Shown one piece after another: positions 26,754 through 62,718 of a stretch of DNA of 64,000 nucleotides; the stretch's first letter is position 1; the number at the start of each line of letters is the position of its first letter. The DNA is taken from assembly GCA_964418315.1 (NCBI GenBank), contig CAYQMO010000002.1:579-64578 (forward strand), in the 5' to 3' direction. The stretch is from an uncultured Geobacter sp. (GTDB lineage Bacteria; Desulfobacterota; Desulfuromonadia; Geobacterales; Pseudopelobacteraceae). The notes below the pieces were generated by a model that worked only from the letters and a program-made list of their open reading frames with translations, was not told the origin of the DNA and did not search any database. A program made the translations under genes and the position numbers.

Positions 26754-26761
26754 AACTACCG

Positions 26762-30269
<3,508 letters not shown>

Positions 30270-30322
30270 ATTACAATAACTTTCTCAATCGGTCAGGTGA
30301 GAACAGCAGATACGAGGTACCA

Positions 30323-32893
30323 ATGCAGATCCCAACAGAAATTCCAAACAACAAGATATCGGTTAATATTGAAGATGAGATGAAACGCTCGTACATGGAT
30401 TACGCCATGTCGGTCATCATCGGTCGCGCGCTGCCTGACGTGCGCGACGGTCTGAAACCGGTGCACCGCCGTTGCCTGTACGCCATGTACGATATGAGCA
30501 ACGACTACAACAAACCGTACAAGAAATCGGCTCGTGTGGTTGGTGATGTTATCGGTAAGTACCACCCGCACGGCGATACCGCTGCGTACGACACCATCGT
30601 GCGTATGGCTCAGGACTTTTCACTCCGCTACATGCTTGTGGATGGCCAGGGTAACTTTGGTTCGGTTGACGGCGACAGGCCGGCTGCGATGCGTTACACC
30701 GAGATCCGCCTGCGTCAGCTTTCCCATGAACTGCTGGCCGATCTGGACAAAGAGACCGTCAACATGGTGCCAAACTACAACGAGGAGATGTTGGAGCCTA
30801 CGGTGCTACCGTCCAAGTTCCCGAACCTGCTGATTAACGGCTCTACCGGAATTGCAGTCGGCATGGCCACCAACATACCGCCCCACAACATCAGCGAAAT
30901 AATCGGCGGTATCATTGCGGTGATACAGAATCCGGAAATCGGTTTTGAGGAGCTCCTAGAAATGATTCCGGGGCCGGATTTTCCGACAGGCGCCACCATC
31001 TACGGTCGCCAGGGGATAAGGGATGCCTACAGTACCGGGCGAGGTATCATCCAGATTCGTGCCAAGGCTCATGTTGAAGCATCAAAGCGTTCAGAGCGCC
31101 AGGCGATTATCGTCACCGAGATTCCGTATCAGGTCAATAAAGCAAAACTGATCGAAAAAATTGCCGAACTGGTTAAGGAGAAGAAGGTCGAAGGGATTAC
31201 CGAGATCCGCGACGAATCTGACCGTCAGGGAATGCGCATCGTTATCGAGGTCAAACGGGACGAAAATGCCGAAGTGCTGCTTAACCAGCTCTTCAAGCAG
31301 TCACAACTGCAAGTCTCCTTTGGCATCATAATGCTTGCAATCGTCCATAACCGTCCCCGTGTGCTGACGCTACGCGAGATGATGGACTGTTTCGTCGAGC
31401 ATCGCTGCGAAGTAGTTACCCGCCGTACTAACTTCGAGCTGAAGAAGGCGCTGGCTCGGGCTCATATCCTCGAAGGACTCAAGATTGCACTTGACTGGCT
31501 CGATGCAGTAATTGAGTTGATCCGTGAGTCAAAAACACCGCCTGAAGCAAAAATCGGCCTGATGGAGGGGAAGTTTGCAGATCCTGAATTCCTGGCGCGC
31601 CTCAATCTGCCACGCCCGGTCGGTTTTGAAGATGCCGTGCAGCTCTCCGATATTCAGGCTCAGGCTATTCTGGAGATGCGTCTGCAGCGTCTGACCGGAC
31701 TTGAACGCGACAAGATCATCGCCGAATACGATGAAATTATGAAACTGATCGCCCGTCTGCGCGAAATTCTGTCGTCAGATACCGAAATTCTCAAGATTAT
31801 CGTCGCTGAATTGACTGAAATTCGCGAACGTTTCGGCGATAAGCGCCGCTCCGAGATCGCCGACAAGAGCGCCGATATATCGCGTGAGGACACCATTGAA
31901 GATGAAGAGATGGTTGTTACGATTTCGCATACCGGTTACATAAAGCGGAGTGCCGTAGACCTCTACCGCTCGCAACGCCGTGGCGGCAAAGGGAAGACCG
32001 GCATGAAGACCAAAGAGGAGGATTTCGTCGAGCAGCTCTTCATCGCCTCTACCAAAGATTACCTGCTCTGTTTCACCGATGCTGGTCGGATGTATTGGCT
32101 GAAAGTCTACGAAATTCCTGAAGGGAGTCGTACTACCAAAGGGAAAGCGGTTGTTAATCTGGTCAACGTCTCAAACGGAGAAAAGATCACCACGATTCTG
32201 CCGGTCAAGGAGTTCAGCGAGAATACCTTCCTCTTTATGGCAACCCAGAGTGGCGTCGTTAAGAAGACCTCACTCGTCGATTACTCTAATGTTCGCCTCG
32301 GCGGCATCATCGCCGTTAATCTTGATGATGGCGACAAGTTGATTTCAGTTGCTCTGACTGACGGCACCAAGGATATTTTCCTCGCTTCAAGAAACGGTAA
32401 GGCTATTCGCTTCAACGAAGAGGATGTTCGTCCGACCGGACGTGCCACCCGCGGGGTGCGAGGTATGAATCTGGCCGAGGATGATCGGGTGATCGGCATG
32501 GAGATCGTTGACAACACCGCCGTCGGTTCGACGATCTTCACCGTCTGCGAAAACGGCTTCGGCAAGCGCACCGACCTGGACGAATATCGTGATCAGTCGC
32601 GCGGCGGTAAAGGTATCATCACCATCAAAACAACAGAGCGTAACGGCTCCGTAGTCAACGTCATGCAGGTGGCAGATGATCACGATCTGATGGTGATCAC
32701 CGACCAGGGCAAAATCCTGCGTGTGCCGGTTTCCGGCTTCTCCGTCATCGGTCGCAACACTCAGGGTGTCACCCTGATGAATACCGAAGAAAATGAGAAG
32801 GTGGTTGCTGTTGCCCGCCTGGCTGAGAAGGATGAGGACGAATCGGATGATAGCCTGGAAGAAGGGGCTGAGGAGACAGAAGCGCAGATTTAG
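30323..32893 (+). CDS. gyrA: DNA gyrase subunit A
   Basis: [38 protein letters not shown], the active-site region RYTEIRL, C-terminal beta-pinwheel repeats, and an acidic tail. Confidence 0.97.
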
Positions 32894-39232: not shown

Positions 39233-39612
39233 GCAGGTTACTGGTAGTAGACGATGAAGCGAACATCCGACTTCTGTACGCCGAAGAGTTGAAGGATGAA
39301 GGGTATGAAGTAGTAACGGCGGCCAGCAGTGCCGAAGCGGTAGAAAAGCTGCAAAACAGCACGTTTGATCTGGCGGTACTCGATATCAAGCTGAAAAACG
39401 AAAGTGGTATCGATCTGCTACAGAAACTGGTCAAGGAGCGTCACGATATGCCGGTAATCCTCTGTTCGGCCTTCTCCTGTTATAAGGATGATTTTTCGGC
39501 CTGGCTGGCGGACGGCTATGTGGTCAAATCGGGTGATCTGGCGGAACTGAAACAGGAAATTGCCAGAGTCCTCGCGAGGAAGGCGCAGAAAGCAAAAGGG
39601 GAGCGCGTATGA
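39229..39612 (+). CDS. Single-domain CheY-like response regulator
   Basis: LLVVDDEANIRLLY...DLAVLDIKL (phospho-acceptor Asp)...PVILCSAF...K. It overlaps the kinase gene by 4 nt. Confidence 0.88.
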   Translation: MSRLLVVDDEANIRLLYAEELKDEGYEVVTAASSAEAVEKLQNSTFDLAVLDIKLKNESGIDLLQKLVKERHDMPVILCSAFSCYKDDFSAWLADGYVVKSGDLAELKQEIARVLARKAQKAKGERV

Positions 39613-42113
39613 AAGCAGTCATAATGGCGGGTGGTTTCGGCACCCGCATCCAACCGCTAACCGGCAGCATGCCCAAACCGATGATACCGCTCTTTAATCG
39701 CCCGATAATGCTTCATATTGTTGAGCTGCTTAAGAAGTACGATATTACGGAACTGGTTATGCTGCTCTATCACCAGCCGTTTTATATCAAAAACTTCTTT
39801 CGTGACGGCTCCGATTTCGGTGTCAAGATAACCTACGTAACGCCGATTGCCGATATGGGGACAGCCGGCGCTGTTAAAGCGGCTGAGAAGTATCTGAATG
39901 AGCGTTTTCTGGTTATCAGCGGTGACCTTCTGACCGATTTCAACCTTAAAAAAATCATCGATTTTCATGATGACCACAAGGCCAGAGCTACGATCACGCT
40001 GACATCGGTAAAAGATCCGCTTCAGTTTGGAGTTGTCATTACGGACAAGGAGAAGCGTATTACCCAGTTTCTGGAAAAGCCCGGGTGGGGTGAAGTCATC
40101 TCCGATACCATTAATACCGGGATTTATGTGTTGGAACCGGAGATATTCAAATATATTCCCGAGGGGGAAAATTTCGATTTTTCGCAGGATCTGTTTCCGA
40201 TTATGCTGAAGAAGAAAGATGCGCTCTTTGGCGTCACTGCCAAAGGGTATTGGCGTGATATCGGCAACACCGACTCCTACCGGGAAGCTTACCACGATAT
40301 TTTCAAGGGGAAAGTAAACCTGAAAATAGATGAGCCGAAACAGGATTTCGTCGGCAAAGATCTGCGCATCGGAGCCGATGTCAAGTTGGAACATTCGTCA
40401 GGGCTTGAAGGTACGGTCGTGATCGGCGACAACAGCCAGATTTTGGGAGACGTCAGCATAAAGGATTCGGTGATAGGGCGCAACTGTACGATTGAAACGG
40501 GTGTCAAACTAAATCGCTGCGTTATCTGGGATAACTCATATATCAAGAAGGGTGCCCGGATTACTGACGGTGTTATCTGTGCCAAAGTACGTATCGGACA
40601 GGGGGTAACCCTTGAAGACGGGGTCATCGTTGGTGATGAAACTACGGTCGGCGATGAGGCCATTATCAAATCAGATGTAAAAATATGGCCAAAGAAAACA
40701 ATTGAGGCTGGAGCAACGGTTACCTCGAACATGATTTGGGGGGATAAATGGAAGAAAGCGCTTTTTGAGGGGGCGATAATCAAGGGGCTCTCCAACATGG
40801 AGCTTACTCCGGAATTTTGTGCCAAGATGGGGTGCGCCTACGGCACCTCGCTCCCCAAAGGGAGCTTCGTGCTTGGTGGCCGCGATTCCAATCCGTCATC
40901 CCGCATGCTCAAGCGCTGTTTCATGGGTGGAGTACTCTCCGCCGGAGTCAATGTGCGCGATATGAAGATGACATCACTGCCGCTGGTTCGTTATAAATTA
41001 AAGACTTTCGGCGAGGTCGGCGGCGTACATTTCCGCCAGGCGCAGGATGATCCTGCCATGCTGGAGATCGTGTTTCTTGATGGTGACGGCCTCGATTTCT
41101 CCAGCGGCATGGGAAAGAATGTTGAACGCACATTTTTCAAGGAAAATTTCAGGCGGGCGCACCATACCGAACCGGGGGTTATCACCGACATCAACAATGT
41201 CGGTGATTTTTATCGAGAAGGTTTCTTGCGCGCGCTCGATCGTGAACTTCTAAAAAAATCAGCGTTTACGGTGGTTGTGGACTTCAGTTTCTCTCCTGCC
41301 AGCCAGACGCTGCCGCAGATGTTAAATGAGCTCGGCTTCTCCGTGATCGCTCTTAATGCATATGTTGATGAAGGGAAAGGAGTTCAGGCCAAGGAAAAAG
41401 AGCTCGCCCTGAATCAGCTTTCGGCGATAGTTTCATCACTGGGAGCTCAGGCAGGTTTCTGGCTTGACCCCTCGGCAGAGGCGATTACGCTCGTTGATGA
41501 AAAAGGAACGATCTGCAGCGGTGTCGAGTTGCTTGCCCTGACCGTTTCAATGCTGATGAAGGCCGGGCAGAAGGGTGCTGTTGCCGTACCGGTGCAAACC
41601 CCTTCTACAATAGAGCAACTGGTGGAGCAGAAGGGGTGCCAGGTGATCCGCACCAAGAGTTCCGACCGTGCCATGCAGGAGGTCGCTTCCTCTTCTGAAA
41701 TCATCCTGACCGGCACTACCGATGGCCGTTTTGCTTTTCCCCGCTTTCAGGCGGCCTTTGACGGCATGTTCGCCATCGCAAAACTGATGGAGCTGAGTGC
41801 TTTCAGCGGAGTATCGCTGTCACAGGCTCTCTCGGAAATTCCGCGCAGCGCGTATCTGCAGACCACTCTTCCCTGCCCCTGGGAAATGAAGGGTGGCATC
41901 ATGCGTAAAATGAGTGAGGATAGCCTGGATAAGGAAGCCACGTTTATAGATGGCATCAAGGTCCATTTTGGCGCCGATTGGGTGCTGATACTCCCGGATC
42001 AATATCTGCCTGTGGTGCATATTGTTGCAGAAGCGCGGGATCAGAAATCGACTCAGAAGCTTCTGAGCGAGTATGAGAAAAAAGTTGTCTCATGGAAAAA
42101 GGATATGGTGTAA
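39609..42113 (+). CDS. Sugar-1-phosphate nucleotidyltransferase (ManC/GlmU-like, with left-handed beta-helix) fused to a phosphohexomutase-like C-terminal half
   Basis: The N-terminus is MKAVIMAGGFGTRIQPLTGSMPKPMIPL. Hexapeptide repeats span 40400-40700. The C-terminal half carries a GGRDSNPSSRML domain-I-like motif. Confidence 0.85.
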   Translation: MKAVIMAGGFGTRIQPLTGSMPKPMIPLFNRPIMLHIVELLKKYDITELVMLLYHQPFYIKNFFRDGSDFGVKITYVTPIADMGTAGAVKAAEKYLNERFLVISGDLLTDFNLKKIIDFHDDHKARATITLTSVKDPLQFGVVITDKEKRITQFLEKPGWGEVISDTINTGIYVLEPEIFKYIPEGENFDFSQDLFPIMLKKKDALFGVTAKGYWRDIGNTDSYREAYHDIFKGKVNLKIDEPKQDFVGKDLRIGADVKLEHSSGLEGTVVIGDNSQILGDVSIKDSVIGRNCTIETGVKLNRCVIWDNSYIKKGARITDGVICAKVRIGQGVTLEDGVIVGDETTVGDEAIIKSDVKIWPKKTIEAGATVTSNMIWGDKWKKALFEGAIIKGLSNMELTPEFCAKMGCAYGTSLPKGSFVLGGRDSNPSSRMLKRCFMGGVLSAGVNVRDMKMTSLPLVRYKLKTFGEVGGVHFRQAQDDPAMLEIVFLDGDGLDFSSGMGKNVERTFFKENFRRAHHTEPGVITDINNVGDFYREGFLRALDRELLKKSAFTVVVDFSFSPASQTLPQMLNELGFSVIALNAYVDEGKGVQAKEKELALNQLSAIVSSLGAQAGFWLDPSAEAITLVDEKGTICSGVELLALTVSMLMKAGQKGAVAVPVQTPSTIEQLVEQKGCQVIRTKSSDRAMQEVASSSEIILTGTTDGRFAFPRFQAAFDGMFAIAKLMELSAFSGVSLSQALSEIPRSAYLQTTLPCPWEMKGGIMRKMSEDSLDKEATFIDGIKVHFGADWVLILPDQYLPVVHIVAEARDQKSTQKLLSEYEKKVVSWKKDMV

Positions 42114-42116
42114 CGG

Positions 42117-44666
42117 GTGCCGGCTAAAGAAGCCAAAGCCCGCATCAAGATAAACAAGCTCCTCGAAGAAGCAGGTTGGCGTTTTTTAGATTCAGCAGAG
42201 GGAAAAGCCAATATTTCTCTGGAGCACAGAACGAAGAAGGGTAAAGTTTCCAGCGACGCGTTGGGGAATGATCTTGAAAATGCGCCGGATGGCTTCATTG
42301 ACTATCTGCTGTTGAATGAACAGAATCGTCCGGTTGCACTGGTTGAAGCTAAACGTGAAAATATAGACCCTTTAACAGCCAAGGATCAGACTCGCGAATA
42401 TGCACGTGGCCAGAATATCCGTCATCTCTTCCTCTCCAACGGCAACGTCCATTACTACTGGGATCTTGAATCGGGAAACCCGACAGTTATTTCTCGTTTT
42501 CTTTCATTGGCACATATTGGAGATGCTGGGAGGTGGCAGCCTGCTCCCGAGAAAATGAAGTCTGTCGAGATTGTCGACGATTATATAGCTCTCTCCCAAG
42601 AGTCACAGTGGCGGAATTATTCAGTTGAACAACAGGCCGACGCGCTTGTCAACAAGGGTGTCCGTCGTTTGCGACCATACCAGATTGAGGCGACTCAAGT
42701 GCTGCAAAAGGAATACGTCGCCGGGAAAAGGCGCTTCCTCTTCGAGATGGCCACCGGCACCGGAAAGACTCTCCTCAGCGCTGCCATCATCAAAATGTTC
42801 ATCCGTTCCGGCAATGCTGATCGGGTATTGTTCCTGGCAGATCGTCTTGAACTGGAGAACCAGGCATTCAAAAACTTCAGAAACTATCTGGCAAAAGATG
42901 CCATAACATCTGTTATCTACAAACAGAACAGGGACAACTGGCATGACGCGCAAATAGTAATCACTACTATTCAGAGCTTTTCAACGGACAACCGCTACCT
43001 GAAACTCTTCTCCCCCAGTGATTTTCAACTCATTATTTCCGACGAGGCGCACCGCACCATTGGCGGTAATAACCGGGTCATTTTTGAATATTTCCTCGGT
43101 GCCAAACTTGGACTAACCGCCACTCCTAAAGATTATCTGAAAGGGGTGGATGTTAATGACATGCAGACCAAAGACCCTCGACAGCTTGAGCGGCGGCTCC
43201 TGCTTGACAGCTATAAAACCTTTGGATGCGACAATGGTGTGCCAACGTACCGATTCAGCCTGGAGGATGCCGTAAAGAGTACACCCCCATATCTTTGTAT
43301 GCCGTTTTTATTGGACGCACGGACAGAGGTGACAACAGAACTTCTCAGCAAGGAGGGGTGGAGCGTCAAGTTTGTCAATGACGATGGTGAGGAAGAGGAA
43401 GATACCTATTTCAAAAAGGACTTCATGCGGAAGTTCTTTTCACCGGAGACCAACCTTTCCTTTGTGCGCTGCTTCTTTGATAACGCCAAACGTGATCCAA
43501 TTTCGGGGGAGATCGGCAAGACCATTTTTTTCTGCGTCTCCCGTGCCCACTGCACCGAACTCACCACACTGCTGAACGTCGAAGCCACACGGCTTTTCCC
43601 TGACAAATATGGCTCAGGTTCAGATTTTGCCGTCCAGATTACCTCAGATATACCCGGTTGCCAAAAGTCTACTATCAGCTTTGCCGAAAACAATCTGAAT
43701 GGCTGGAGCAACTACAATCCGGAACTGATTGACTACGAAAGCTCAAAAACTCGCGTTTGCCTTACCGTGGGTATGATGACCACCGGCTATGATTGCGAAG
43801 ACATTCTCAACATTGTTCTCGCCCGTCCCATCTTCTCGCCATCTGATTATATTCAGATAAAGGGTCGCGGAACACGGCTATTCACTTTTGCATACCGGCA
43901 TGGTGCGGTAAAGAAGGAAAAGAAGAAGGACAACTACCATCTTTTCGATTTCTTTGCTAATCACCAGTATTTTCAGGACGAGTTTGATTATAAGAAACGC
44001 CTGGAGCCGCCTCCAATTGGCAGAGAAGCCGGTAATGGCGGTGGTGGTGGAAGTGGCACAGATGGTTACACGCACACCGGCCCGGATGATGTTACAAATG
44101 TGGTGAAAGAGGAGTTTGGCCCCGACAACATCATGCGGGTGGATACGGAGGCTTTCTCAAAAGGTTTTGAAACCAAAGTTCGGGAAGAAGCCGAACAATC
44201 CGAAGAGCTACGCGAAGCGATTGAACGAGAAGATTGGCAGCGGCTCTGGAGCCATGTCGAAACGAATATTTTTGATAAGCCGCAGGAGTTCTGGAATTTC
44301 GAGAAGCTGCAAAATTCATACGGCATTGATCGACGTATTTCCCCGGAAGAATTGATGCAGAAGGTGTTTATCCCCGGCTATCATTTGAAGAACCGTCAGA
44401 ATCTCGTGGATGAACAGTTTGAGCGCTTCATATCTGCCGGCAAGGTTGATGGTTCCCATTACAATGAAGCGAAACAGCTCTTTTATTCGTATCTGCTGTT
44501 CGATGATATCCGTGGCGTTATGCATAATCCAAGGCAGATGGGTTCACTGGCAACGGATATGAGGCTTTCCATGCAGGATCTGAAAAAACTCGGGCGTTCA
44601 GGCATTGACGCCACTCTCAACTACATTAAGGACAATGTTCCGATTAACCGGTTTTTGCCGAGGTAA
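42117..44666 (+). CDS. hsdR: HsdR-like restriction subunit: PD-(D/E)xK nuclease N-terminus + SF2 DEAH helicase/translocase
   Basis: AKARIKINKLLEEAGWRF. The nuclease motif is GFIDYLLL...ALVEAKR. Helicase motifs are I (EMATGTGKTL), II (IISDEAHR) and III (GLTATP), followed by a motif VI region IQIKGRGTR. The GTG start lies 3 nt after the upstream stop. Confidence 0.85.
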   Translation: MPAKEAKARIKINKLLEEAGWRFLDSAEGKANISLEHRTKKGKVSSDALGNDLENAPDGFIDYLLLNEQNRPVALVEAKRENIDPLTAKDQTREYARGQNIRHLFLSNGNVHYYWDLESGNPTVISRFLSLAHIGDAGRWQPAPEKMKSVEIVDDYIALSQESQWRNYSVEQQADALVNKGVRRLRPYQIEATQVLQKEYVAGKRRFLFEMATGTGKTLLSAAIIKMFIRSGNADRVLFLADRLELENQAFKNFRNYLAKDAITSVIYKQNRDNWHDAQIVITTIQSFSTDNRYLKLFSPSDFQLIISDEAHRTIGGNNRVIFEYFLGAKLGLTATPKDYLKGVDVNDMQTKDPRQLERRLLLDSYKTFGCDNGVPTYRFSLEDAVKSTPPYLCMPFLLDARTEVTTELLSKEGWSVKFVNDDGEEEEDTYFKKDFMRKFFSPETNLSFVRCFFDNAKRDPISGEIGKTIFFCVSRAHCTELTTLLNVEATRLFPDKYGSGSDFAVQITSDIPGCQKSTISFAENNLNGWSNYNPELIDYESSKTRVCLTVGMMTTGYDCEDILNIVLARPIFSPSDYIQIKGRGTRLFTFAYRHGAVKKEKKKDNYHLFDFFANHQYFQDEFDYKKRLEPPPIGREAGNGGGGGSGTDGYTHTGPDDVTNVVKEEFGPDNIMRVDTEAFSKGFETKVREEAEQSEELREAIEREDWQRLWSHVETNIFDKPQEFWNFEKLQNSYGIDRRISPEELMQKVFIPGYHLKNRQNLVDEQFERFISAGKVDGSHYNEAKQLFYSYLLFDDIRGVMHNPRQMGSLATDMRLSMQDLKKLGRSGIDATLNYIKDNVPINRFLPR

Positions 44667-44685
44667 AAACAAACCAAAGTCAAAG

Positions 44686-44760
44686 GCAACCCCAACCCCT
44701 CCCAACCTCCCCTTATCAGGGGAGGAGCAAGACTAAAGTCCGGGGGGCTAGGGGGGTTGC
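44686..44760. repeat. Family-A element doublet (MITE-like unit with termini GCAACCCC ... GGGGTTGC) in the hsdR/hsdMS spacer
   Basis: GCAACCCCAACCCCTCCCAACC-TCCCCTTATCAGGGGA-GG ... CCGGGGGGCTAGGGGGGTTGC, that is, tail + hairpin followed by an inverted tail. Confidence 0.7.
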
Positions 44761-44774
44761 TTTTAAGGAATTTC

Positions 44775-47696
44775 ATGCTCTCCAAAGAGACAAAAAAGAA
44801 AATAGATGATGCTCGCGATATTTTGGTGGGGCAACTGCCACTACCGTCTGATCAGGTCGAACTGATAACCATCGCTCTGATTTACAAGTTCATGGATGAT
44901 CAGGATGAGGATCTTCGTCAGCTTGATTTTGCGGAAGCGTTTTTCTCCGGTGATCTGAAACAATATTCATGGCAGCGCTTGATGAGTAATGAAATCGATG
45001 CCGATGAACGGGTGAATGTATTCACCAAAGGGATTGAGGAAATTCAGAAGGCAGCGCACATTCCTCTCCTGTTCCGTGAAATATTCAAAAACACTTTTCT
45101 CAAATTTCGCGATGGCCGTACCCTGCACCTTTTTCTCGGAGTCATCAACGGCTTCAGCTATGATCACAGTGAAGAGCTGGGCAACGCCTTTGAATATCTG
45201 CTGATGAGCATGGGGGCACAGGGGGAGAACGGTCAGTTTCGCACACCACGCAACATCATCGACTTCATTGTTGAGGTGGTCGATCCGGACAAGGGTGACA
45301 CTATCCTCGACCCGGCCTGCGGTACCGGCGGCTTTCTCCTCTCTGCATATAAGCACATTCTGCGGAAATACACGACCGACCGTGAACATTACCGGATAAC
45401 GCTTAACAACGAAGAAATCGAAGGAATACCGGTCAACTGGGGTGACAAGCTAACTACCCAGGATCTGAAACAGTTAGGCGTCAGCATTGAGGGATATGAC
45501 ATCACCCCGCAGATGACGCGGCTTGCCAAAGTAAATCTCTATCTGCACCAGTTCAAAAGCCCCCGCATTCACGAATACGACACCCTTACGTCAGAAGGTC
45601 GCTGGAAGGATAAGTACGACTGCATCCTAGCCAATCCGCCGTTTATGACGCCAAAGGGTGGTGTCTCGACTCACTCCAAATTCCGTATCCGCGCCACCAA
45701 GGCGGAAGTGCTCTTTTCTGATTACATCCTGGAACACCTCACCCCCGATGGCATGGCCGGTTTCATCGTGCCGGAAGGGATCATTTTTCAGAACAGTGAT
45801 GATTATGTGGAACTGCGCAAATGGCTGGTAAATGGTGCCGGTCTTTGGGCGGTGGTATCTCTGCCAGCCCAGATTTTCCAGCCTTACTCGGGTGTTAAGA
45901 CTTCGATCCTGTTCATTGATCGCAAGATAGCGCGAAGCCGGGATGAGATTATTCTCGTCAAGGTGGAAAGCGATGGTTATACCCTCAACACCAACCGCGT
46001 ACCGACAGCCAGGAACGATTTGCCAGAGGCGTTAAATCTTCTGACTATCGGGAAAAAGAGTCTGGATGAGTTGCGTGATTATCTGGAGAAGAACGGTGGC
46101 AAGCAGGATATGCCCAAGGCATTGATCAAACCACGTAGCGAGTTTGCCCGATTGGATGCCTACAAAGCGCAGAGCGCGGCGTTCAGCCTGATTCGCAAGC
46201 AGCATGAAAAGTGTCTGGCGGTGGAAGAGGAAATTCAACTTCTACCCCATCCCCTCCCTAACCCTCCCCTTGAAGGGGAGGGGACAAAAAACCTTCCTCC
46301 GGCTGAGAAGAAGAAAGCTGATGAAGTGGAGAAGAAGCGAGTTCGACTTAAGGCCGCTTTGACTAAACAAATCGCAGAATTTTTCAAGATAGCCGGAACT
46401 GCCTACAACAAAATCCTCCCTCCCCTTCAAGGGGAGGGTCGGGGTGGGGATGGGGTGATTGCCCTTCAGTCATACTTTGATAACAACTTGAAAGAGGCTG
46501 TCATTGCTTATGGTGCAGATGGCACAAAGGTCGGTGATCTCACTCCGCACCTGCGCGACTATCTGGACGGGTTGCGGGAATATAGTTTGAGTTTTGATAA
46601 ATATGCTGGAGGGAATGGGCCAACAGTGCACGCTATACACGAGATGGTATTGCTTGGTGACGTTTGTTCTTTTGAATATGGCAAACCCCTGAAAGAAGAA
46701 AATCGTATAAATGGAGAGTTTCCGGTTTATGGTTCAAACGGAATTGTTGGTTATCACAACGAATTTTTAGTAGAAGCACCATTTCTCGTTGTTGGTAGAA
46801 AGGGAAGTGCCGGTTCTGTCCATTATTCTGAGAAGAGCGGCTTTCCGATCGATACAACGTTTTTTGTCAAACTTGCGCAGGAAGATAAAATACTGTTGAA
46901 GTACCTTTATCCATTGCTTCAAAAGCTGAGTCTGAAAGACCTTAACACTCAAGCGGGAGTTCCCGGACTTAACAGGAATGACGCTTATCAACTTCAAATC
47001 CCACTTCCTTCCCTCGAAATCCAGAAGCAGATTGTCGCAGAAATTGAGACGTACCAGAAGGTTGTAGACGGCTGCAATCTGATTATTGAGAACTACAAGC
47101 CAGAAATACAGATAAATTCTGAGTGGCCTATGGATGAGCTTGATAGTCTGTGTGACATTGTAAGAGGAAGCTCTCCAAGGCCGCAGGGTGACCCTAAACT
47201 TTTCGGTGGACCAGTTCCAAGACTGATGATTGCAGATATAACACGTGATGGGATGAGGGTTACGCCTAAAATTGATTCATTGACCGATCTTGGTGCAACG
47301 AAAAGTCGCCCAATGGATTCTGGTAGCGTCGTTATGGCGGTTAGCGGCAATCCTGGCCTGCCAGCAATCCTAAAAGTTAATGCATGCATCCATGACGGTT
47401 TTGTTGGATTCAGGCAGTTAGATACATCTCAAATCATACACGAATTTCTTTACTATGTCCTTCTTGACAAAAAAGACGAACACGGTTCACAGTCTGTAGG
47501 TTCTGTATTTAAAAACCTGACAACTGACCAAATTCGAGCAATCAAAATCCCCCTCCCTCCACTCGAAACCCAGCAAAAAATAGTCGCTGAACTTGAGCAA
47601 GAAATGTCTGCCGTGGCAGGTGCCAAGCGCCTGAAAGCCAAGATGGAAGCCCGTATCCGCACCACCATCAGCAGGGTGTGGGGAGAGAAGGCATGA
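44775..47696 (+). CDS. Fused Type I-like methyltransferase-specificity protein (HsdM N-terminal ~470 aa + two-TRD HsdS C-terminal ~350 aa)
   Basis: The MTase part has FRTPRNIIDFIVEVV, DPACGTGGFL (motif I) and LANPPFMTPKGG (motif IV). The S part has two variable TRDs, each followed by a conserved helix: IPLPSLEIQKQIVAEIETYQKVVD and IPLPPLETQQKIVAELEQEMSAV. ATG at 44775 has an AAGGAA Shine-Dalgarno sequence. Confidence 0.85.
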   Translation: MLSKETKKKIDDARDILVGQLPLPSDQVELITIALIYKFMDDQDEDLRQLDFAEAFFSGDLKQYSWQRLMSNEIDADERVNVFTKGIEEIQKAAHIPLLFREIFKNTFLKFRDGRTLHLFLGVINGFSYDHSEELGNAFEYLLMSMGAQGENGQFRTPRNIIDFIVEVVDPDKGDTILDPACGTGGFLLSAYKHILRKYTTDREHYRITLNNEEIEGIPVNWGDKLTTQDLKQLGVSIEGYDITPQMTRLAKVNLYLHQFKSPRIHEYDTLTSEGRWKDKYDCILANPPFMTPKGGVSTHSKFRIRATKAEVLFSDYILEHLTPDGMAGFIVPEGIIFQNSDDYVELRKWLVNGAGLWAVVSLPAQIFQPYSGVKTSILFIDRKIARSRDEIILVKVESDGYTLNTNRVPTARNDLPEALNLLTIGKKSLDELRDYLEKNGGKQDMPKALIKPRSEFARLDAYKAQSAAFSLIRKQHEKCLAVEEEIQLLPHPLPNPPLEGEGTKNLPPAEKKKADEVEKKRVRLKAALTKQIAEFFKIAGTAYNKILPPLQGEGRGGDGVIALQSYFDNNLKEAVIAYGADGTKVGDLTPHLRDYLDGLREYSLSFDKYAGGNGPTVHAIHEMVLLGDVCSFEYGKPLKEENRINGEFPVYGSNGIVGYHNEFLVEAPFLVVGRKGSAGSVHYSEKSGFPIDTTFFVKLAQEDKILLKYLYPLLQKLSLKDLNTQAGVPGLNRNDAYQLQIPLPSLEIQKQIVAEIETYQKVVDGCNLIIENYKPEIQINSEWPMDELDSLCDIVRGSSPRPQGDPKLFGGPVPRLMIADITRDGMRVTPKIDSLTDLGATKSRPMDSGSVVMAVSGNPGLPAILKVNACIHDGFVGFRQLDTSQIIHEFLYYVLLDKKDEHGSQSVGSVFKNLTTDQIRAIKIPLPPLETQQKIVAELEQEMSAVAGAKRLKAKMEARIRTTISRVWGEKA
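46244..46283. repeat. Family-A palindromic element, forward orientation, in frame in the M-S linker
   Basis: ACCCCATCCCCTCCCTAACCCTCCCCTTGAAGGGGAGGGG is translated as LPHPLPNPPLEGEG. It matches the reverse complement of 46417-46456 at 36 of 40 positions. Confidence 0.85.
46417..46456. repeat. Family-A palindromic element, reverse orientation, in frame in the M-S linker
   Basis: TCCCTCCCCTTCAAGGGGAGGGTCGGGGTGGGGATGGGGT is translated as ILPPLQGEGRGGDGV. Its reverse complement is identical to 5111-5150. Confidence 0.85.
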
Positions 47697-47947
47697 GTCA
47701 AAATCAACGTCAAAACCAACCCCCCTCAGTCCCCCCTTATCAGGGGGGAGGCTTTTTAGCTCCCTCCCCTGATAAGGGGAGGGTCGGGGAGGGGTTTGCT
47801 TTTGACTCTGGTTCTGACTCTACCTTCCTCCCTTACAGCAAAAACCTCACCGCTCTTGCCCGTGAAAACCGCTGTAACCCTACAAAAGCCGAAAGCAAAA
47901 TCTGGCGCGAAGATCTTATGCTTCGGCTTATGCAGGTGACATCCTGA
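47693..47947 (+). CDS. 84-aa micro-ORF: repeat-derived N-terminus plus only the N-terminal helix of a DUF559-type (Vsr-like endonuclease) protein; possibly a gene remnant
   Basis: The start overlaps the hsdMS stop (ATGA) and the stop overlaps the darT start (TGATG). LPYSKNLTALARENRCNPTKAESKIWRE matches the usual DUF559 leader (LPYN..L...AR.LR.N.T.AE..LW..L). No nuclease core follows. Confidence 0.4.
   Translation: MSQNQRQNQPPSVPPYQGGGFLAPSPDKGRVGEGFAFDSGSDSTFLPYSKNLTALARENRCNPTKAESKIWREDLMLRLMQVTS
47713..47798. repeat. Head-to-head doublet of family-A-like elements downstream of hsdMS
   Basis: AAAACCAACCCCCCTCAG-TCCCCCCTTATCAGGGGGGA (47713-47751) and CTCCCTCCCCTGATAAGGGGAGGG-TCGGGGAGGGGTTTG (47760-47798). 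The outer tails are mutually inverted. Confidence 0.7.
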
Positions 47948-48594
47948 TGCCAGCGCCCCAACCCACCCCAATATACCGCATCCTCCACATCGACAACCTG
48001 CCGGCTATTCTTCAGCGTGGTGGTCTGCATGCACCTAATTTTACGCCGGATGATGGTTTTGTGTATCGCGCCATTCACAACACCGACGTTCAGGCAGCAC
48101 GACGGGCGTGCTCAATTCCATGTGGGCCAGGTGGGACTGCGCATGACTATGTGCCGTTCTATTTCGGTTATCTTGCCGTGATGCTTCTCAATCTCAAGAC
48201 GGGTAGAGTTTCTGGCTATAATCAGGGTCAGGAACCGTTGATATATCTCGTGAGCACAGCACAATCAATAGTAGAAAACGGCGCTGAAATTGTGTTCTCC
48301 GATGGTCATGGATTAGCTGCCCTTACGAGTTGGTATGATTCATTGTGTCACTTTGATGAAATTGACTGGAACATCGTCTGCCAGCGTTACTGGCGTGATA
48401 ACGATGAGGATAATGACCGGCAGCGCCGCAAACAAGCCGAATTTCTGATTCATAGATGGTGTGATTGGACACTTATCAAAGAAATCGGAGTGCAGAACAA
48501 TAAAATTCGTGATATTGTCGCCACCCATCTCAACAAATTTTCCGGACGACAACAGCCAATCGTAACGGTGCGACCTGAATGGTATTATTTCTGA
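47947..48594 (+). CDS. darT: DarT (DUF4433) ssDNA ADP-ribosyltransferase toxin
   Basis: IYRILHIDNLPAILQRGGLHA is the typical DUF4433 start. YVPFYF and the conserved KQAEFLIH segment, which carries the putative catalytic Glu, are present. Length is 215 aa. An AGGTGA Shine-Dalgarno sequence lies 7 nt upstream. Confidence 0.85.
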   Translation: MPAPQPTPIYRILHIDNLPAILQRGGLHAPNFTPDDGFVYRAIHNTDVQAARRACSIPCGPGGTAHDYVPFYFGYLAVMLLNLKTGRVSGYNQGQEPLIYLVSTAQSIVENGAEIVFSDGHGLAALTSWYDSLCHFDEIDWNIVCQRYWRDNDEDNDRQRRKQAEFLIHRWCDWTLIKEIGVQNNKIRDIVATHLNKFSGRQQPIVTVRPEWYYF

Positions 48595-48604
48595 AGAGGG
48601 TTCT

Positions 48605-49675
48605 ATGATCAACTATACTAACGGAAATTTGCTAAAAGCTGAGGCTGATGCACTAGTAAACACCGTGAACTGCATTGGTTTTATGGGTAAAGGTATTGCC
48701 CTACAGTTCAAACAGGCGTTTCCGGAAAACTTTAGAGCATATGAGCGCGCTTGTAAGTCGAATGCAGTACAGCCAGGGAGGATGTTTATTTTTCCCACCG
48801 GCACTATGTTAAATCCACGCTACATAATCAACTTTCCGACCAAACGTCACTGGAGAGGTGACTCGCGACTGGAGGATATTGAGTCTGGCCTCAAAGCACT
48901 GATTGAAGAAATAAGATCTCTCAATATTAGATCAATTGCTGTGCCACCGCTTGGGTGTGGCAATGGTAAACTCGACTGGGATGTGGTGCGCCCCATGATG
49001 GAACTGGCCTTTGCTCAGTTGCCTGAGGTTGAGGTTACGCTTTATGCACCACAAAGTGCGCCGGAGGCAGCTAGTATGCCAGTTGCTACCAGTCGTCCGG
49101 AGCTTACTATTGCACGAGCCTTGTTTATAAAGCTTATGGACTGCTATTCGGTACTTGATTATCGACGTACACTATTAGAAATCCAGAAACTTGCTTATTT
49201 CCTTCAAGAGGCAGGAGAGCCACTTCGTCTCAAGTATGAAGCAGGACATTATGGCCCTTATGCCACCAACCTCAATAAGGTGCTTGAGCGCCTGGAAGGA
49301 CACTTTATTCGCGGTTATGGCGATAGCCAAAAACCTGATACCGAGATTGAGTTATTGTCGGGGGCAGTACAGGAAGCAGAGATCTTCCTGACAAATAAAC
49401 ATGATTCGCTTGACAGAATGAAGATGGTCTGCGCTTTGATCGAAGGCTTTGAAACGCCCCACGGCATGGAGTTACTGGCAACTGTTCACTGGGTCGCCCA
49501 TTACGCTACTACAAAAGCGACGGATGAAGACACTGCAATTAGTGCCGTACAGCAGTGGAGTGCTCGTAAAATGAGGATGTTCCGTCCACAACACATACGC
49601 ATTGCATGGAAACGGCTAGTGCATTGCGGCTGGCTGGATTTGCCGAATCAACTTATGTTGTCATCACGAGGCTGA
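48605..49675 (+). CDS. darG: DarG antitoxin (N-terminal macrodomain + C-terminal DarT-binding domain)
   Basis: NGNLLKAEADALVNTVNCIGFMGKGIALQFKQAFPEN...IINFPTKRHWRGDSRLEDIESGL...SIAVPPLGCGNGKLDW is a macrodomain. Length is 356 aa. The gene starts 10 nt after darT. Confidence 0.85.
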   Translation: MINYTNGNLLKAEADALVNTVNCIGFMGKGIALQFKQAFPENFRAYERACKSNAVQPGRMFIFPTGTMLNPRYIINFPTKRHWRGDSRLEDIESGLKALIEEIRSLNIRSIAVPPLGCGNGKLDWDVVRPMMELAFAQLPEVEVTLYAPQSAPEAASMPVATSRPELTIARALFIKLMDCYSVLDYRRTLLEIQKLAYFLQEAGEPLRLKYEAGHYGPYATNLNKVLERLEGHFIRGYGDSQKPDTEIELLSGAVQEAEIFLTNKHDSLDRMKMVCALIEGFETPHGMELLATVHWVAHYATTKATDEDTAISAVQQWSARKMRMFRPQHIRIAWKRLVHCGWLDLPNQLMLSSRG

Positions 49676-49677
49676 TT

Positions 49678-51867
49678 ATGCCCCAACCGCTTGACGTAGT
49701 AATCGTATGGCATATGCATCAGCCATACTACAAGGATCCGCTGAAAAATGAATATGCTCTCCCCTGGACTTATCTTCACGGCATCAAGGATTATTTTGAT
49801 ATGCCGGCCATTATTGAAGATACTCCCGGTGCCAGGGCGGTATTCAATCTCGTTCCTTCACTGATAGAACAGTTGCTGGAGTATGCCTCCGGAATTGCGG
49901 TTGATCCGTTCCTTGAGAAGGGTAAGGCGGCACCGTCAGAACTGACTATTGAGGATCGGATCTTCCTGCTGGAAAATTTCTTCTCGGCAAACCGTCAGAA
50001 TATGATCGAACCTTCGCGGCGCTACCTCGAACTGCTCTATATGGCTGGAGAGGGGAAGGCTGGGAGCGCGGCAGAACGCGTCAAACATTTTACCGAGCAG
50101 GATATCCTTGATTTGCAGGTCTGGTTCTTCCTGGCCTGGACGGGTGAGGCGGCCCGCCGAAGGTATCCCGCTTTTGCCGAACTTGTCGCCAAGGGGGAAA
50201 ACTTTACCGCCACCGATAAAAATCTGCTTTTTTCAACTCAGTTAGAGGTGTTGCAGGCGATACTGCCGCTCTATAAACGTCTCCATGAGCAGGGGCGCAT
50301 TGAGCTGTCAGTGACCCCCTATTATCATCCGATTATGCCGTTACTCTGCGACCAGAAAATTGCTCTGACCGCCATGCCTCGAGTGACCCTTCCAGTTGCC
50401 GGTTTTTGTCATCCGGAAGATGCCCGCGCCCAGATCCGTCGTGGAATTGTCTATTTCCGAAAAATATTCGGCTTCAATCCGACCGGAATGTGGCCTTCTG
50501 AGGGTTCTGTCAGCAACGAGGTTTTGGCGCTCATCGCCGGGAGTGGCATTTCCTGGATTGCATCTGATGAGGAGATCCTTGAAAAAAGCATGGATGGCGG
50601 TCTTGGCGCCGGCAAGGAGAGGCTCTACCGCCCCTGGCGATACAGCTGCAGTCAGGGAGAAATCGGGGCATTCTTTCGCGATCATCAGCTCTCAGACTTG
50701 ATCGGCTTTACCTATTCGCAGTGGGAGACAGGAAGGGCGGTGACTGACCTCTGCGGACGTCTGGATGCCATCAAGTCCCGTCTGGGGGGCGACGGTCGAG
50801 TCGTATCGATCATCCTTGATGGCGAAAATGCCTGGGAGTACTACCCCAATAACGCCTACGATTTTCTGCAGGGGATGTACCTGGGAATTGCCGGATCAGC
50901 CACGCTTCGCCTGACTACCTGTAGTGACGTGCTGAAAAATACTAATTTTGAAGGGCGGCTGCATTCAATTTTTCCCGGTTCATGGATAAGCGGTAATTAC
51001 AGCATCTGGATCGGTCATCCGGAGGAGAATCTCGCCTGGGATCTGATTGCCCATGCTCGTGAAGCGGCTCTGTCCGGCAATCCATTCGTTGCCGCCACTC
51101 TCGAAAGCGGAGAGCCTTCTGGGGACGCCACCGCAGAGATGATCTGCCGCTCTCTCTATGCTGCCGAAGGGAGTGACTGGTTCTGGTGGTATGGAGATGA
51201 CCATTTTTCTCCCCACAGCGACCGTTTCGACAGCCTGTTCCGCCAGCACTTGATGAATATCTATCGGCTTCTGGGTCAGGATCCTCCGCGTGAGCTGCTG
51301 GAGCCGATCAAGAAGAAGAACCCTGCCGGATTGATTCGGGAGCCGGCCGCATTTATCGATCCGGAGATCAACGGCAGGATCAACGACTATTTTGAATGGC
51401 TGGCGGCCGGCCTGTATGATCTGACCCGCCAGGGCTCGGCCATGCATTCATCCGACCGGATGCTCCAGAGTTTCTACTATGGCTTCAACGAGAAGTCGCT
51501 TTTCTTCAGAATTGACGGCGTTCAGGATCTTTCCCGGTTATTGAAGGGAGATGATCAGCTTAATCTGCACCTTATCTACGATCATGATTACCGATTGCCG
51601 ATGCAGACTAAGAACGATGAGGGGCTATTGCTGATAAAGGAAAATGGCGTATGGAAGCCGACCAACAGCATCTGCAACTGGAAGATTGTAAAGACCTGCG
51701 AGATCAGCATCCCTCTTGAGAGCATCAAGCTGAGCCCTGAGAGCAAGCTGTTCGTATCAATAACTCTGATACGCGACAACGAGGAGATCGGCCGTTGGCC
51801 GAGCGACGCCCCGCTTATGATCTATTATGCGGGAGCGCATATCGAACTGGATAATTGGTTGATATAG
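49678..51867 (+). CDS. Glycoside hydrolase family 57 protein (alpha-glucan active)
   Basis: VVIVWHMHQPYYKDP...LPWTYLHGIKDYFDM, then ELSVTPYYHPIMPLL and DGENAWEYY. The ATG at 49678 lies 2 nt after the darG stop and has a GAGG Shine-Dalgarno sequence. Confidence 0.88.
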   Translation: MPQPLDVVIVWHMHQPYYKDPLKNEYALPWTYLHGIKDYFDMPAIIEDTPGARAVFNLVPSLIEQLLEYASGIAVDPFLEKGKAAPSELTIEDRIFLLENFFSANRQNMIEPSRRYLELLYMAGEGKAGSAAERVKHFTEQDILDLQVWFFLAWTGEAARRRYPAFAELVAKGENFTATDKNLLFSTQLEVLQAILPLYKRLHEQGRIELSVTPYYHPIMPLLCDQKIALTAMPRVTLPVAGFCHPEDARAQIRRGIVYFRKIFGFNPTGMWPSEGSVSNEVLALIAGSGISWIASDEEILEKSMDGGLGAGKERLYRPWRYSCSQGEIGAFFRDHQLSDLIGFTYSQWETGRAVTDLCGRLDAIKSRLGGDGRVVSIILDGENAWEYYPNNAYDFLQGMYLGIAGSATLRLTTCSDVLKNTNFEGRLHSIFPGSWISGNYSIWIGHPEENLAWDLIAHAREAALSGNPFVAATLESGEPSGDATAEMICRSLYAAEGSDWFWWYGDDHFSPHSDRFDSLFRQHLMNIYRLLGQDPPRELLEPIKKKNPAGLIREPAAFIDPEINGRINDYFEWLAAGLYDLTRQGSAMHSSDRMLQSFYYGFNEKSLFFRIDGVQDLSRLLKGDDQLNLHLIYDHDYRLPMQTKNDEGLLLIKENGVWKPTNSICNWKIVKTCEISIPLESIKLSPESKLFVSITLIRDNEEIGRWPSDAPLMIYYAGAHIELDNWLI

Positions 51868-61488: not shown

Positions 61489-62718
61489 GTGATTAGTCAA
61501 TTAAATGATCTCCAGAAAAGTAGAAGTTCAAGCTACCACATCGAGATAAACATGAACCTGTCGCCGTTTATTACAAATGTCAATTTCCCTCCGATATCCG
61601 AGGTAAAGCGCTGGCTTGCCGAGCGCCCGGATGATGGTCTTAAGCTGATAGATCTCTGTCAGGCTGTGCCTGATTATTCCCCGGCTGCGGAATTGACGGC
61701 ACATCTGGCCGGTTTGCTGACGGATCCGCAAATGTCGAAGTACTCTCCTGACGAAGGACTTCCGGAAGTGCGTAATTCGATATGCGACTACCTTGGCAGA
61801 CGCTATGGCGGAACGGCGTCATCGGACAACATCTGCCTGACGATCGGTGCCAGTCAGGCGTTCTGGCTGGCGATTGTCACGCTCTGCCGCGCCGGTGATG
61901 AGGTTGTTGTTCAGGCTCCATGCTATTTTGATCACCAAATGGCGCTTGAAATTCTCGGTATCCGCGCAGTATTCGCTCCATTTGTTGAGTCTGAAGGGGG
62001 AATTCCTGATCCTGCTACAATTGAAGGTTTGATCTCACCCGGAACCAGGGCGATTCTTGTCGTAACACCCAGTAATCCGACCGGTACCATTACACCTCCT
62101 GGGATCATTCGTGAACTGTATGATATTGCCCGGCGTCACAACATCGCTCTGCTTCTCGACGAGACCTATAACGAGTTTATCCCCGGTGGCTTACGGCCTC
62201 ATGAACTTTTCTGCAACCCGACCTGGGGCGACCACTTTGTGCAGATAGCCTCGTTCGGCAAGACGTATGCCCTGACAGGATACCGCGCCGGTATGCTCGT
62301 GGCTTCTCGCAATTTCATTCACCATGCGCTCAAAGCTCAGGACACCATGGCGGTCTGTCAGCCGCGCATTACCCAGCATGCCGTCAAATTTGGCGTAGAA
62401 CAGCTTGATTACTGGGTTGCGGCCAACCGGGAGATGATGGGGCGGCGTCACGATATTTTCAACACCGAATTCATGCGACCCGGAAACCGATTTCAGATCA
62501 TAACAAGCGGCACCTTCTTTGCGTGGGTGCGACATCCGTTCAGCGGACGCAGCGGGCGTCAGGTGGCAAAACGATTGGTTGACGAAGCGGCAATCCTCTG
62601 CCTGCCGGGCGAGGTTTTTGGATCCGGACTGGAAAATTATCTGCGGCTGGCTTTCGGAAATATCCGCGAGGAAGCTATTCCGGAGGCGGTTGGACGATTC
62701 AAGGAGATAATGGTATAA
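61489..62718 (+). CDS. Class I/II pyridoxal-phosphate-dependent aminotransferase (start uncertain: GTG 61489 or ATG 61552)
   Basis: SFGKTYALTGYRAG is the PLP-lysine motif SxxK...GxRxG. PSNPTG and LLLDETYNEF are also present. Confidence 0.88.
   Translation: MISQLNDLQKSRSSSYHIEINMNLSPFITNVNFPPISEVKRWLAERPDDGLKLIDLCQAVPDYSPAAELTAHLAGLLTDPQMSKYSPDEGLPEVRNSICDYLGRRYGGTASSDNICLTIGASQAFWLAIVTLCRAGDEVVVQAPCYFDHQMALEILGIRAVFAPFVESEGGIPDPATIEGLISPGTRAILVVTPSNPTGTITPPGIIRELYDIARRHNIALLLDETYNEFIPGGLRPHELFCNPTWGDHFVQIASFGKTYALTGYRAGMLVASRNFIHHALKAQDTMAVCQPRITQHAVKFGVEQLDYWVAANREMMGRRHDIFNTEFMRPGNRFQIITSGTFFAWVRHPFSGRSGRQVAKRLVDEAAILCLPGEVFGSGLENYLRLAFGNIREEAIPEAVGRFKEIMV

Follow-up and report, generated by a model that had tools for sequence, protein, structure and literature searches.

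A probable anti-phage island with restriction-modification and DarTG genes in an integrase-less hotspot of an uncultured Geobacter

We analysed a stretch of 64,000 nucleotides (nt) of DNA from an uncultured Geobacter sp. (contig CAYQMO010000002.1), hereafter the window, and concentrated on the block 42117-49675 (7.6 kb), which contains an HsdR-like restriction gene (R), a fused HsdM-HsdS gene (M-S), an open reading frame (ORF) of 84 codons, and the genes of the toxin DarT and the antitoxin DarG (together DarTG). This block is, in all likelihood, an accessory anti-phage island in a hotspot that is flanked by core genes and has no integrase; it would hold two separable and complete systems, in an association of restriction-modification (R-M) with DarTG that is already known, together with a small ORF that is debris rather than a component.

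Insertion between manC/PMM and GH57

The protein encoded to the left of the island is a fused sugar-1-phosphate nucleotidyltransferase/phosphomannomutase (manC/PMM), kept at 72-98% amino acid (aa) identity over 80 Geobacteraceae loci, and the gene to the right encodes a glycoside hydrolase of family 57 (GH57); both are conserved genes of sugar metabolism. The stop codon of manC/PMM ends at 42113, 3 nt before the GTG of R at 42117, while the TGA of DarG (49673-49675) lies 2 nt before the ATG of GH57 at 49678. Overlapping codons are found at 47693-47696 (ATGA) and at 47945-47949 (TGATG), and all genes from cysS (36100) through the TIGR02757-like DUF2400 gene (53847) lie on the + strand, separated by short junctions or overlapping each other. 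A first-pass annotation, made by a model from the letters alone, had reported these positions, junctions, overlaps and the same-strand gene string, and all of them were found in the sequence. The features of the island and its two flanking genes are listed in Table 1.

We then surveyed the manC/PMM loci of Geobacteraceae and Desulfuromonadales, with one genome per species (80 loci; individual loci are designated by L numbers and proteins by P numbers). GH57 followed manC/PMM after 30 nt or less at 50 of the 80 loci, 33 of which had a distance of exactly 6 nt, and after 31-150 nt at 14 others, so that the two genes were within 150 nt of each other at 64 loci. A larger occupant preceded GH57 at four loci, the downstream gene order was different at seven, and the contig ended after manC/PMM at five. 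None of the 80 surveyed loci had R or M-S genes. The empty sites of 6 nt share the conserved spacer TAAC[CT]GATT. The site of the nearest relative (L001) is also empty and reads GGTGTAA-CAGGTC-ATGCCCCAACC (ATGCCCC...), with nothing between the two genes; its flanks are 92-94% identical in nucleotides to those of the window (dS, the synonymous divergence, 0.23-0.33), and the identity stays at about 90-99% right up to the junctions. Distant Geobacter relatives (L073, L075, L076 and L080) are empty as well. The block 42117-49675 is an accessory insertion, and the synteny with empty sites upholds what the first-pass annotation had proposed on this point.

It could be argued that the clade inherited the island from its ancestor and that the empty sites arose by secondary deletion. 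The junctions common to the diverged alleles of the window, L081 and L088, the divergence of R and M-S from those of L081, which equals that of the flanks, and the relics of the DarG tail under unrelated cargo (all described below) would agree with such a history. However, it is implausible that so many deletions were exact, with manC/PMM and GH57 within 150 nt of each other in 64 of 80 species and an identical spacing of 6 nt in 33, and both the nearest relative and the distant Geobacter relatives are empty, which makes an ancestral island very improbable.

The window appears to come from a contig (66 kb) of a metagenome-assembled genome, and its junctions might for this reason be suspected to be artefacts of assembly. 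However, an independent metagenome contig of 2.4 kb from the Joint Genome Institute (JGI) keeps the order M-S end, 84-aa ORF, DarT, DarG and GH57 start and is independent support for the right junction, and homologous left or right junctions were found in L081, L088, L090 and L050, which are from other samples. An artefact is hardly credible.

Table 1. Features of the island and of its flanking genes in the window.
Feature	Position	Strand	Description
manC/PMM-like left flank gene	39609..42113	+	834 aa; Pfam NTP_transferase and PGM_PMM I-III
HsdR-like restriction subunit (R)	42117..44666	+	849 aa, GTG start; N-terminal PD-(D/E)xK nuclease and superfamily 2 (SF2) motor
Palindromic repeat in the R to M-S spacer	44682..44764		REP/MITE-like (repetitive extragenic palindromic/miniature inverted-repeat transposable element); fold -45.9 kcal/mol, z -2.9
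Fused HsdM-HsdS (M-S)	44775..47696	+	973 aa from ATG 44775; open frame from TTG 44757
Two inverted repeat copies in the M-S linker	46244-46282 and 46418-46456		39-nt arms, 92% complementary
84-codon ORF ("micro-ORF")	47693..47947	+	84 codons; hairpin repeat and start of a DUF559 gene
DarT	47947..48594	+	215 aa; single-stranded DNA (ssDNA) ADP-ribosyltransferase toxin, predicted Thermus/thymidine (DarT2-like) type
DarG	48605..49675	+	356 aa; antitoxin with macrodomain ADP-ribosylglycohydrolase and C-terminal DarT-binding domain
GH57 right flank gene	49678..51867	+	729 aa; Glyco_hydro_57 1.4e-57

Alternative occupants of the site

Occupied alleles were recovered as metagenome contigs via close homologues. 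At the manC/PMM-GH57 site, R and M-S are followed by PDC-M59A and a broken M59B in L081, by HATPase_c, DUF4325 and PIN genes in L086 and L087, and by a gene of 244 aa, DarT and DarG in L088 and L089, where M-S has 801 aa. Other alleles of the same site have no R or M-S: L038 contains HATPase_c, DUF4325 and PIN genes, L032 a PIN gene, L090 a SIR2_2 gene, a DarT stub and DarG, and L050 PDC-M59A/B followed by remnants of DarT (aa 160-215) and DarG (aa 304-356). Elsewhere, M-S, DarT and DarG are found together at an unrelated locus (L092), while L083 and L084 have R and M-S genes at 88-92% nucleotide identity to those of the window, with an AbiJ-like gene, in a phage-like element that also encodes AlpA, DUF927, PIF1 and Bro-N. 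With its conserved pair of core genes, its variable defence content and its empty alleles, the manC/PMM-GH57 site is an integrase-less hotspot across the family.

Several of these occupants could be described further. PDC-M59, a PADLOC candidate system, consists of a protein of 336-341 aa and a Fic/DOC protein; it is directly 3' of M-S in L081 (12835-14317), where M59B is broken into ORFs of 39 and 69 aa, and is found without R and M-S in L050 (2961-4413). The cassette of L086 (12994-14785) and L038 (12899-14672) encodes a HATPase_c-like protein (289 aa), a DUF4325/STAS-like protein (120 aa) and a PIN protein (186 aa), which are 82-84% identical in aa between the two loci, and we regard it as a candidate defence or toxin-antitoxin module because it has no system-level match in PADLOC. 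In L090 (445-2979), an intact orphan DarG, 82% identical to that of the window, is preceded by a DarT cut to its last ~39 codons, with SIR2_2 upstream; here the antitoxin was kept after loss of the toxin. The protein of 244 aa encoded between M-S and DarT in L088 (8552-9286) has no Pfam hit on record.

The first-pass annotation saw no integrase, transposase, tRNA or flanking direct repeat, and our searches bear this out. No integrase or transposase domain was detected by a Pfam scan of 29 ORFs of the window, which covered every ORF of at least 300 aa between 1228 and 61343 and left out those at 61489-62718, 63020-63976 and 501-1409 and several of 150-276 aa. No tRNA was found in the window, and the search for a flanking direct repeat or target-site duplication gave only a match of 19 nt (84%) inside the flank genes and microhomology at the level of TAAC, neither of which is evidence. 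The site is therefore free of the integrase, transposase, tRNA and att hallmarks of a mobile element, although R and M-S ride on a phage-like element in L083.

The R and fused M-S genes

The R protein matched ResIII of Pfam at 2.6e-37 and REase_I of PADLOC at 2.7e-47, and HSDR_N_2 at 22.4 bits, which is under the Pfam cutoff of 25. Its motifs (D..EAK at residues 58-79, GTGKT near 213 and DEAH at 309) are those of the nuclease and SF2 translocase of a type I R-M enzyme. The top NCBIfam family was EcoAI/FtnUII (NF046051), with 191 bits against a cutoff of 550, and TIGR00348 gave 43 bits against a cutoff of 284; R is a type I-like relative that stands outside the curated EcoAI/FtnUII equivalog and TIGR00348 families.

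The most likely start of M-S is ATG 44775, which gives the 973 aa of the public protein P0001; with this start the spacer between R and M-S is therefore 108 nt long and holds the palindromic repeat. In M-S, a linker joins a gamma-type N6-adenine methyltransferase domain to two target-recognition domains, with Pfam matches to N6_Mtase (7e-44) and to Methylase_S in two stretches (~630-781 and ~787-949) and PADLOC matches to MTase_I and Specificity_I. The S-adenosylmethionine motif and the NPPF/Y motif of an N6-adenine methyltransferase are both intact (DPACGTG at 179 and NPPF at 287). HsdM and HsdS are not the separate polypeptides of an M2S1 enzyme here, and their fusion is kept across a family of more than 8000 homologues, one of which is named 'restriction endonuclease subunit M/S'. 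An R protein of ~845-852 aa regularly precedes the members of this family across phyla, and the R and M-S pair belongs to a large, multi-phylum type I-like family. The first recognition domain of M-S is common to P0003 and P0004, whereas the second differs, and some relatives hold a single recognition domain; such differences are the usual specificity shuffling. The dN/dS ratio (nonsynonymous to synonymous divergence) was 0.06 for R, compared with L083 and L081, and 0.03 for M-S.

In other phyla, DUF2971, Peptidase_M78 with DUF4411, and DUF6602 genes are found 3' of the R and M-S pair (L094 9951-12882; L096 9925-10614), and the DUF6602 gene begins 3 nt past the M-S stop. These small genes fit a variable position downstream of M-S.

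DarT and DarG

DarT matched PF14487 at 4e-56 (190 bits, cutoff 22.5), NF048013 at 226 bits (cutoff 150) and DarT of PADLOC at 2.4e-62. Compared with solved structures, it matched the Thermus DarT 7OMV with an E value of 6.7e-43, and the next best was the DarT of Mycobacterium tuberculosis (7YK3_A) at 1e-18; its sequence is thus nearer to the thymidine-specific DarT than to the other solved DarTs, and this base specificity is predicted for it. The glutamate of the ARTT motif is present (...kqaEflihr), whereas 7OMV has an alanine in the crystallised protein (...kqaAflvyk), which we take to be the E160A catalytic mutant. The darT gene has its own ribosome-binding site, AGGTGA, and a dN/dS of 0.12 compared with L088.

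The DarG gene starts 10 nt after DarT, and its product scored 472 bits with NF048014 (cutoff 250) and 3e-136 with DarG of PADLOC. Its residues 1-152 match 5M3I/5M31 and its residues 191-339 match 7YK3_B, so the antitoxin next to the toxin has a macrodomain at its N terminus and a DarT-binding domain at its C terminus. The dN/dS of DarG was 0.06, and all four genes of the island are under strong purifying selection (0.03-0.12). With both proteins above the NCBIfam equivalog cutoffs, DarT and DarG are canonical. The first-pass annotation had seen two mechanistically different defences in the island, and this part of it stands, the one being a type I-like R with a fused M-S and the other DarTG.

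The 84-codon ORF

The 84-codon ORF is made of two unrelated pieces. The first, at ~47696-47822, is a near-perfect hairpin repeat of 125 nt (fold -79.5 kcal/mol, z -7.9), in which a terminator-like hairpin at 47730-47749 is followed by a T-run, GGCTTTTTAG, between M-S and DarT. The second, at ~47830-47944, is what remains at the 5' end of a truncated gene for a DUF559 (Vsr-like endonuclease) protein. Searched exhaustively with HMMER, the 84-aa product gave only 31 hits, and the ten that were scanned with Pfam (154-208 aa) were all DUF559 proteins; the product aligned only to the N-terminal leader of these proteins and to ~25 residues at the beginning of the domain (LPYxKNLTxLARENRxNPTxAExKIW), and the alignment ends at the start of DarT. 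No family was found for it in Pfam and PADLOC, even at E values up to 10. The ORF is missing from the sister alleles L088 and L092, and the 244-aa gene of L088, considered as an intact version of it, was rejected for lack of similarity. The homology to a hairpin repeat and a truncated DUF559 gene means that the ORF is debris and not a system component, and because it is debris the ATGA and TGATG overlaps show no translational coupling between real genes. A small ORF that overlaps its neighbours neatly can thus be a translated repeat and a gene stub, which calls for caution in annotation.

The first-pass annotation had suggested that R, M-S, the small ORF and DarTG were expressed as one module and were the best candidate in the window if any part of it was an undescribed composite system. 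In such a system the small protein or translational coupling would tie restriction to DNA ADP-ribosylation. The overlapping codons would suit such a composite, as would the recurrence of R, M-S, a third gene and DarTG at the site in L088, the order M-S then DarTG in L092, and the possible crosstalk between methylation and ADP-ribosylation that was raised by Jankevicius 2016 (PMC5179494). However, the ORF is a repeat joined to a gene stub that L088 and L092 do not have, in L081 and L086 other cargo genes use the ATG within ATGA as a conserved start codon, a terminator-like hairpin stands between M-S and a DarT that has its own ribosome-binding site, and R and M-S precede at least five other sets of genes while DarTG is found without this R and M-S, both at the site and elsewhere. 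One obligate unit does not agree with these results, and the association was not undescribed, as it was reported in 2016 (PMC5179494) and its protection against phage has been shown (PMC12255303). We consider a composite system improbable.

No sigma-70-like promoter for DarTG was found after the hairpin, in 47800-47947. The total of promoter-like hits equalled the expectation from shuffled sequence.

The palindromic repeats

The repeat in the R to M-S spacer has the core CTCCCCT..AGGGGAG and is missing from the close relatives L083 and L086, in which this spacer is 15 nt long. The two copies of the M-S linker belong to the same family and lie in frame between the M and S parts, where they encode extra peptides, LPHPLPNPPLEGEGTKN and PPLQGEGRGGDGVIA, that are missing from P0003 and P0004 in a protein alignment. 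At the second linker position, the repeat-derived insert of the relative P0005 is longer. The M-S linker evidently tolerates repeat insertions. L083 and L086 are without all three island copies, and the repeats coincide with breaks of similarity between the window and its relatives (44673-44765, 46234-46458 and after 47702). The family is also found in ordinary intergenic DNA of relatives, where it contains stop codons.

Translation of the repeat gives approximately PSPDKGRxGEG, which is the N-terminal leader of DUF559 ORFs (among P0243-P0263), and in P0253 and P0247 the repeat also forms the C-terminal tail, so that it flanks the DUF559 gene on both sides. The repeat and DUF559 may form a small mobile unit of a repeat plus an endonuclease; we know of no description of such a unit. 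Like REP and bacterial interspersed mosaic element (BIME) repeats, the family consists of short GC-rich hairpins between operon genes that are sometimes terminator-like; unlike them, it is also present in frame in a protein linker and supplies the leader, and sometimes also the tail, of DUF559 ORFs.

These repeats bear on whether a mobile element placed or reshuffled the island, be it a phage-like or satellite element, as in L083, or a palindromic-repeat/DUF559 unit acting at the borders of the modules. The first form would account for the close R and M-S genes of L083 and L084 among AlpA, DUF927, PIF1 and Bro-N genes, and a left junction of 114 nt in L086 suggests a separate arrival; the second would account for repeats that sit exactly at the similarity breaks and for the repeat-derived peptide at both ends of some DUF559 proteins. 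However, the island has no integrase, att site or terminal repeat at its borders, the DUF559 copy is truncated here, and the repeats are scattered in ordinary intergenic regions of relatives, and because of this they may insert wherever they are tolerated. We regard placement or reshuffling by such an element as unlikely.

Junctions, composition and history

On the left, the window, L081 and L088 share the junction TAA-CNG-GTG, whereas L086 has its spacer of 114 nt. At the other end, the last 17-45 nt of DarG are kept before GH57 in every occupied allele, whatever the cargo, and this tail has a GAGG ~8 nt before the ATG of GH57 (...CCGAGGCTAA..ATG). In L086, the PIN gene is fused to the DarG tail at ATGCTGGATT. 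In L090 and L050, DarG ends at the matching codon position, with a TAA; for this reason an origin of the DarG stop from the host spacer, suggested by a match of CTGATT to the spacer of L004, was rejected. These arrangements suggest that DarTG has long resided at the site, that other cassettes replaced it by illegitimate recombination, and that in the occupied alleles the island, and not manC/PMM, would supply the ribosome-binding site of GH57. The ATGA at the M-S stop is conserved in the window, L081, L086 and L083, and in L081 and L086 the cargo gene starts at this ATG.

The dS of R and M-S was ~1.1 compared with L081, which is equal to the divergence of the flanks, and 0.4-0.5 compared with L083. 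This pattern of divergence points to a long, reticulate history and not to one recent event.

The first-pass annotation had suggested profiling the composition of the island against its flanks, as well as a search with PADLOC. The latter returned REase_I, MTase_I, Specificity_I, DarT and DarG, and the former gave no foreign signal in the island. The GC content at third codon positions (GC3) was 0.45-0.53 in the island and 0.50-0.61 in the eight nearest flank genes, the codon fit of the island was slightly lower, and its tetranucleotide distance ranked 40th of 113 windows; none of these measures sets the island apart, and compositional foreignness was rejected. A cyanobacterial origin was also rejected, as the HIP1 motif GCGATCGC is not enriched (it occurs once against ~1.5 expected) and the relatives are Geobacteraceae. 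A tblastn search found no relics of PDC-M59 or other cargo in the island of the window; only the first 10 nt were alike (ATGAGTCAAA against ATGAGCAAAG), which is too short to count.

Several observations weigh against our interpretation of the locus as an accessory island of two known systems with a debris ORF. Pure debris would not usually start and stop precisely on overlapping codons, as this ORF does. The equal divergence of the R and M-S genes and of the flanks between the window and L081 fits long vertical residence, and since the closer L001 is empty, a precise loss or a short-tract replacement is needed. The identity of the flanks, in bins of 250 nt, did not rise near the junctions when the window was compared with island-bearing loci, and no visible recombination tract proves a transfer by flank homology. 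In addition, the score of R is far under the cutoff of the EcoAI family, a fused M-S with two recognition domains raises the question of its subunit stoichiometry, and read-through expression and the role of the hairpins are what we infer.

It is also conceivable, though rather doubtful, that R and the fused M-S form a carrier platform with a 3' cargo slot, in which abortive-infection or toxin-antitoxin cassettes are swapped at the conserved ATGA, perhaps via the palindromic-repeat/DUF559 unit at the borders of the modules, and that in Geobacteraceae this platform colonised the interior of an origin-proximal housekeeping operon and brought with it the ribosome-binding site of the downstream core gene. 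DarTG, PDC-M59, HATPase/DUF4325/PIN, the AbiJ-like gene, DUF6602 and others would be the candidate cargoes of such a platform, with the same doubt attached to them. The expression of the host genes and that of the island would then be mutually dependent.

Proposed function and expression

For the accessory island with two separable systems, we propose the following mode of action, based on the domains and motifs of its proteins. M-S would methylate a bipartite target, which its two recognition domains define, and R, with its nuclease and SF2 motor, would cut incoming DNA that is unmethylated. DarT would ADP-ribosylate ssDNA and halt replication once infection frees it from DarG, which would otherwise reverse the modification and sequester the toxin. 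DarTG occupies a variable cargo position at the 3' end of the island, downstream of M-S.

The island is most likely expressed by read-through of transcription from the host genes upstream, and the repeat hairpins probably modulate transcription between the modules and may partly terminate it. Given the junctions of 2-3 nt in this gene string, read-through expression and polarity on the downstream gene are directly testable. The presence or absence of the island and the variation of its cargo are best explained by homologous recombination in the conserved flanks together with illegitimate recombination inside the island. Exchange by flank homology would be the most economical route of spread, and a phage-like vehicle for R and M-S exists (L083).

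Comparison with known systems

The locus is a new member of two known kinds, the core defence hotspots and the associations of type I R-M with DarTG. DarTG was found inserted in type I R-M operons of Thermus aquaticus and others (Jankevicius 2016, PMC5179494), and in enteropathogenic Escherichia coli (EPEC) an island of a type I R-M system and DarTG2, controlled by RptR, protects against phage (NAR 2025, PMC12255303). Like these, the island of the window has a canonical DarT and DarG on the same strand as a type I-like R-M system, with a DarT of the Thermus type. Unlike these, its order is R, fused M-S, DarT and DarG, with DarTG at the 3' end and not between hsdS and hsdR, and its M and S form one polypeptide. 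The EPEC locus (RRDM) has the order RptR-HsdMS-DarTG2-HsdR-M48, with RptR first and M48 last, whereas here R is 3 nt after manC/PMM, GH57 directly follows DarTG, and there is no RptR-like regulator, no M48 peptidase and no flanking insertion sequence element but a core gene string with junctions of 2-3 nt.

The R subunit resembles those of type IB systems (EcoAI/EcoEI-like) in the R-first order, in its size (~850 aa), in the nuclease at its N terminus and its ResIII motor, and in its top NCBIfam family, EcoAI/FtnUII; it differs from them in not being an EcoAI equivalog (191 against the cutoff of 550 bits). An engineered fusion of the M and S subunits of EcoKI was functional (Roberts 2012); unlike it, the fusion here is natural and has its own large family (more than 8000 hits), in which many members have a single recognition domain.

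Defence hotspots flanked by core genes and without the hallmarks of mobile elements have been described in Pseudomonas aeruginosa (cDHS1/2; Johnson 2023) and in E. coli (Hochhauser 2023), and transfer by flank homology has been proposed for them (PMC10250203). The manC/PMM-GH57 site has in common with them its conserved flank genes, variable defence content, empty alleles and absence of an integrase. It differs from them in its size (0-7.6 kb against medians of 6-26 kb), in its place inside an apparent single co-directional operon with a spacer of 6 nt in empty alleles, in the DarG-tail/GAGG that the occupied alleles share and that would supply the ribosome-binding site of the downstream core gene, and in its origin-proximal position.

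Our results extend core defence hotspots to the Geobacteraceae, an environmentally important and genetically tractable group, with an unusually clean and small example for which empty, full and decayed alleles are all in hand. They show that a defence island can live in a housekeeping gene string with junctions of 2-3 nt. The alternative occupants (HATPase_c with DUF4325 and PIN, PDC-M59, the 244-aa gene and SIR2_2) are candidates for the discovery of defence systems, and the locus has some value as a model of a compact hotspot and for the candidate defence cassettes that it offers.

Other features of the window

The window covers the region of the replication origin, with yidC, mnmE, mnmG and rsmG on the - strand (17394-22940) and dnaA, dnaN, recF, gyrB and gyrA on the + strand (24043-32893). 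This gene layout places the island ~18-26 kb from dnaA, in the same orientation as replication. The ssDNA at oriC is a substrate of DarT, and M. tuberculosis, too, has its darTG next to dnaB near oriC.

At the other end of the window, 1228-6084 on the - strand encodes a two-partner-secretion exoprotein of 1618 aa with ESPR, TPS and GLUG domains and six MBG_2 repeats, and it lies where the tetranucleotide composition of the window deviates most.

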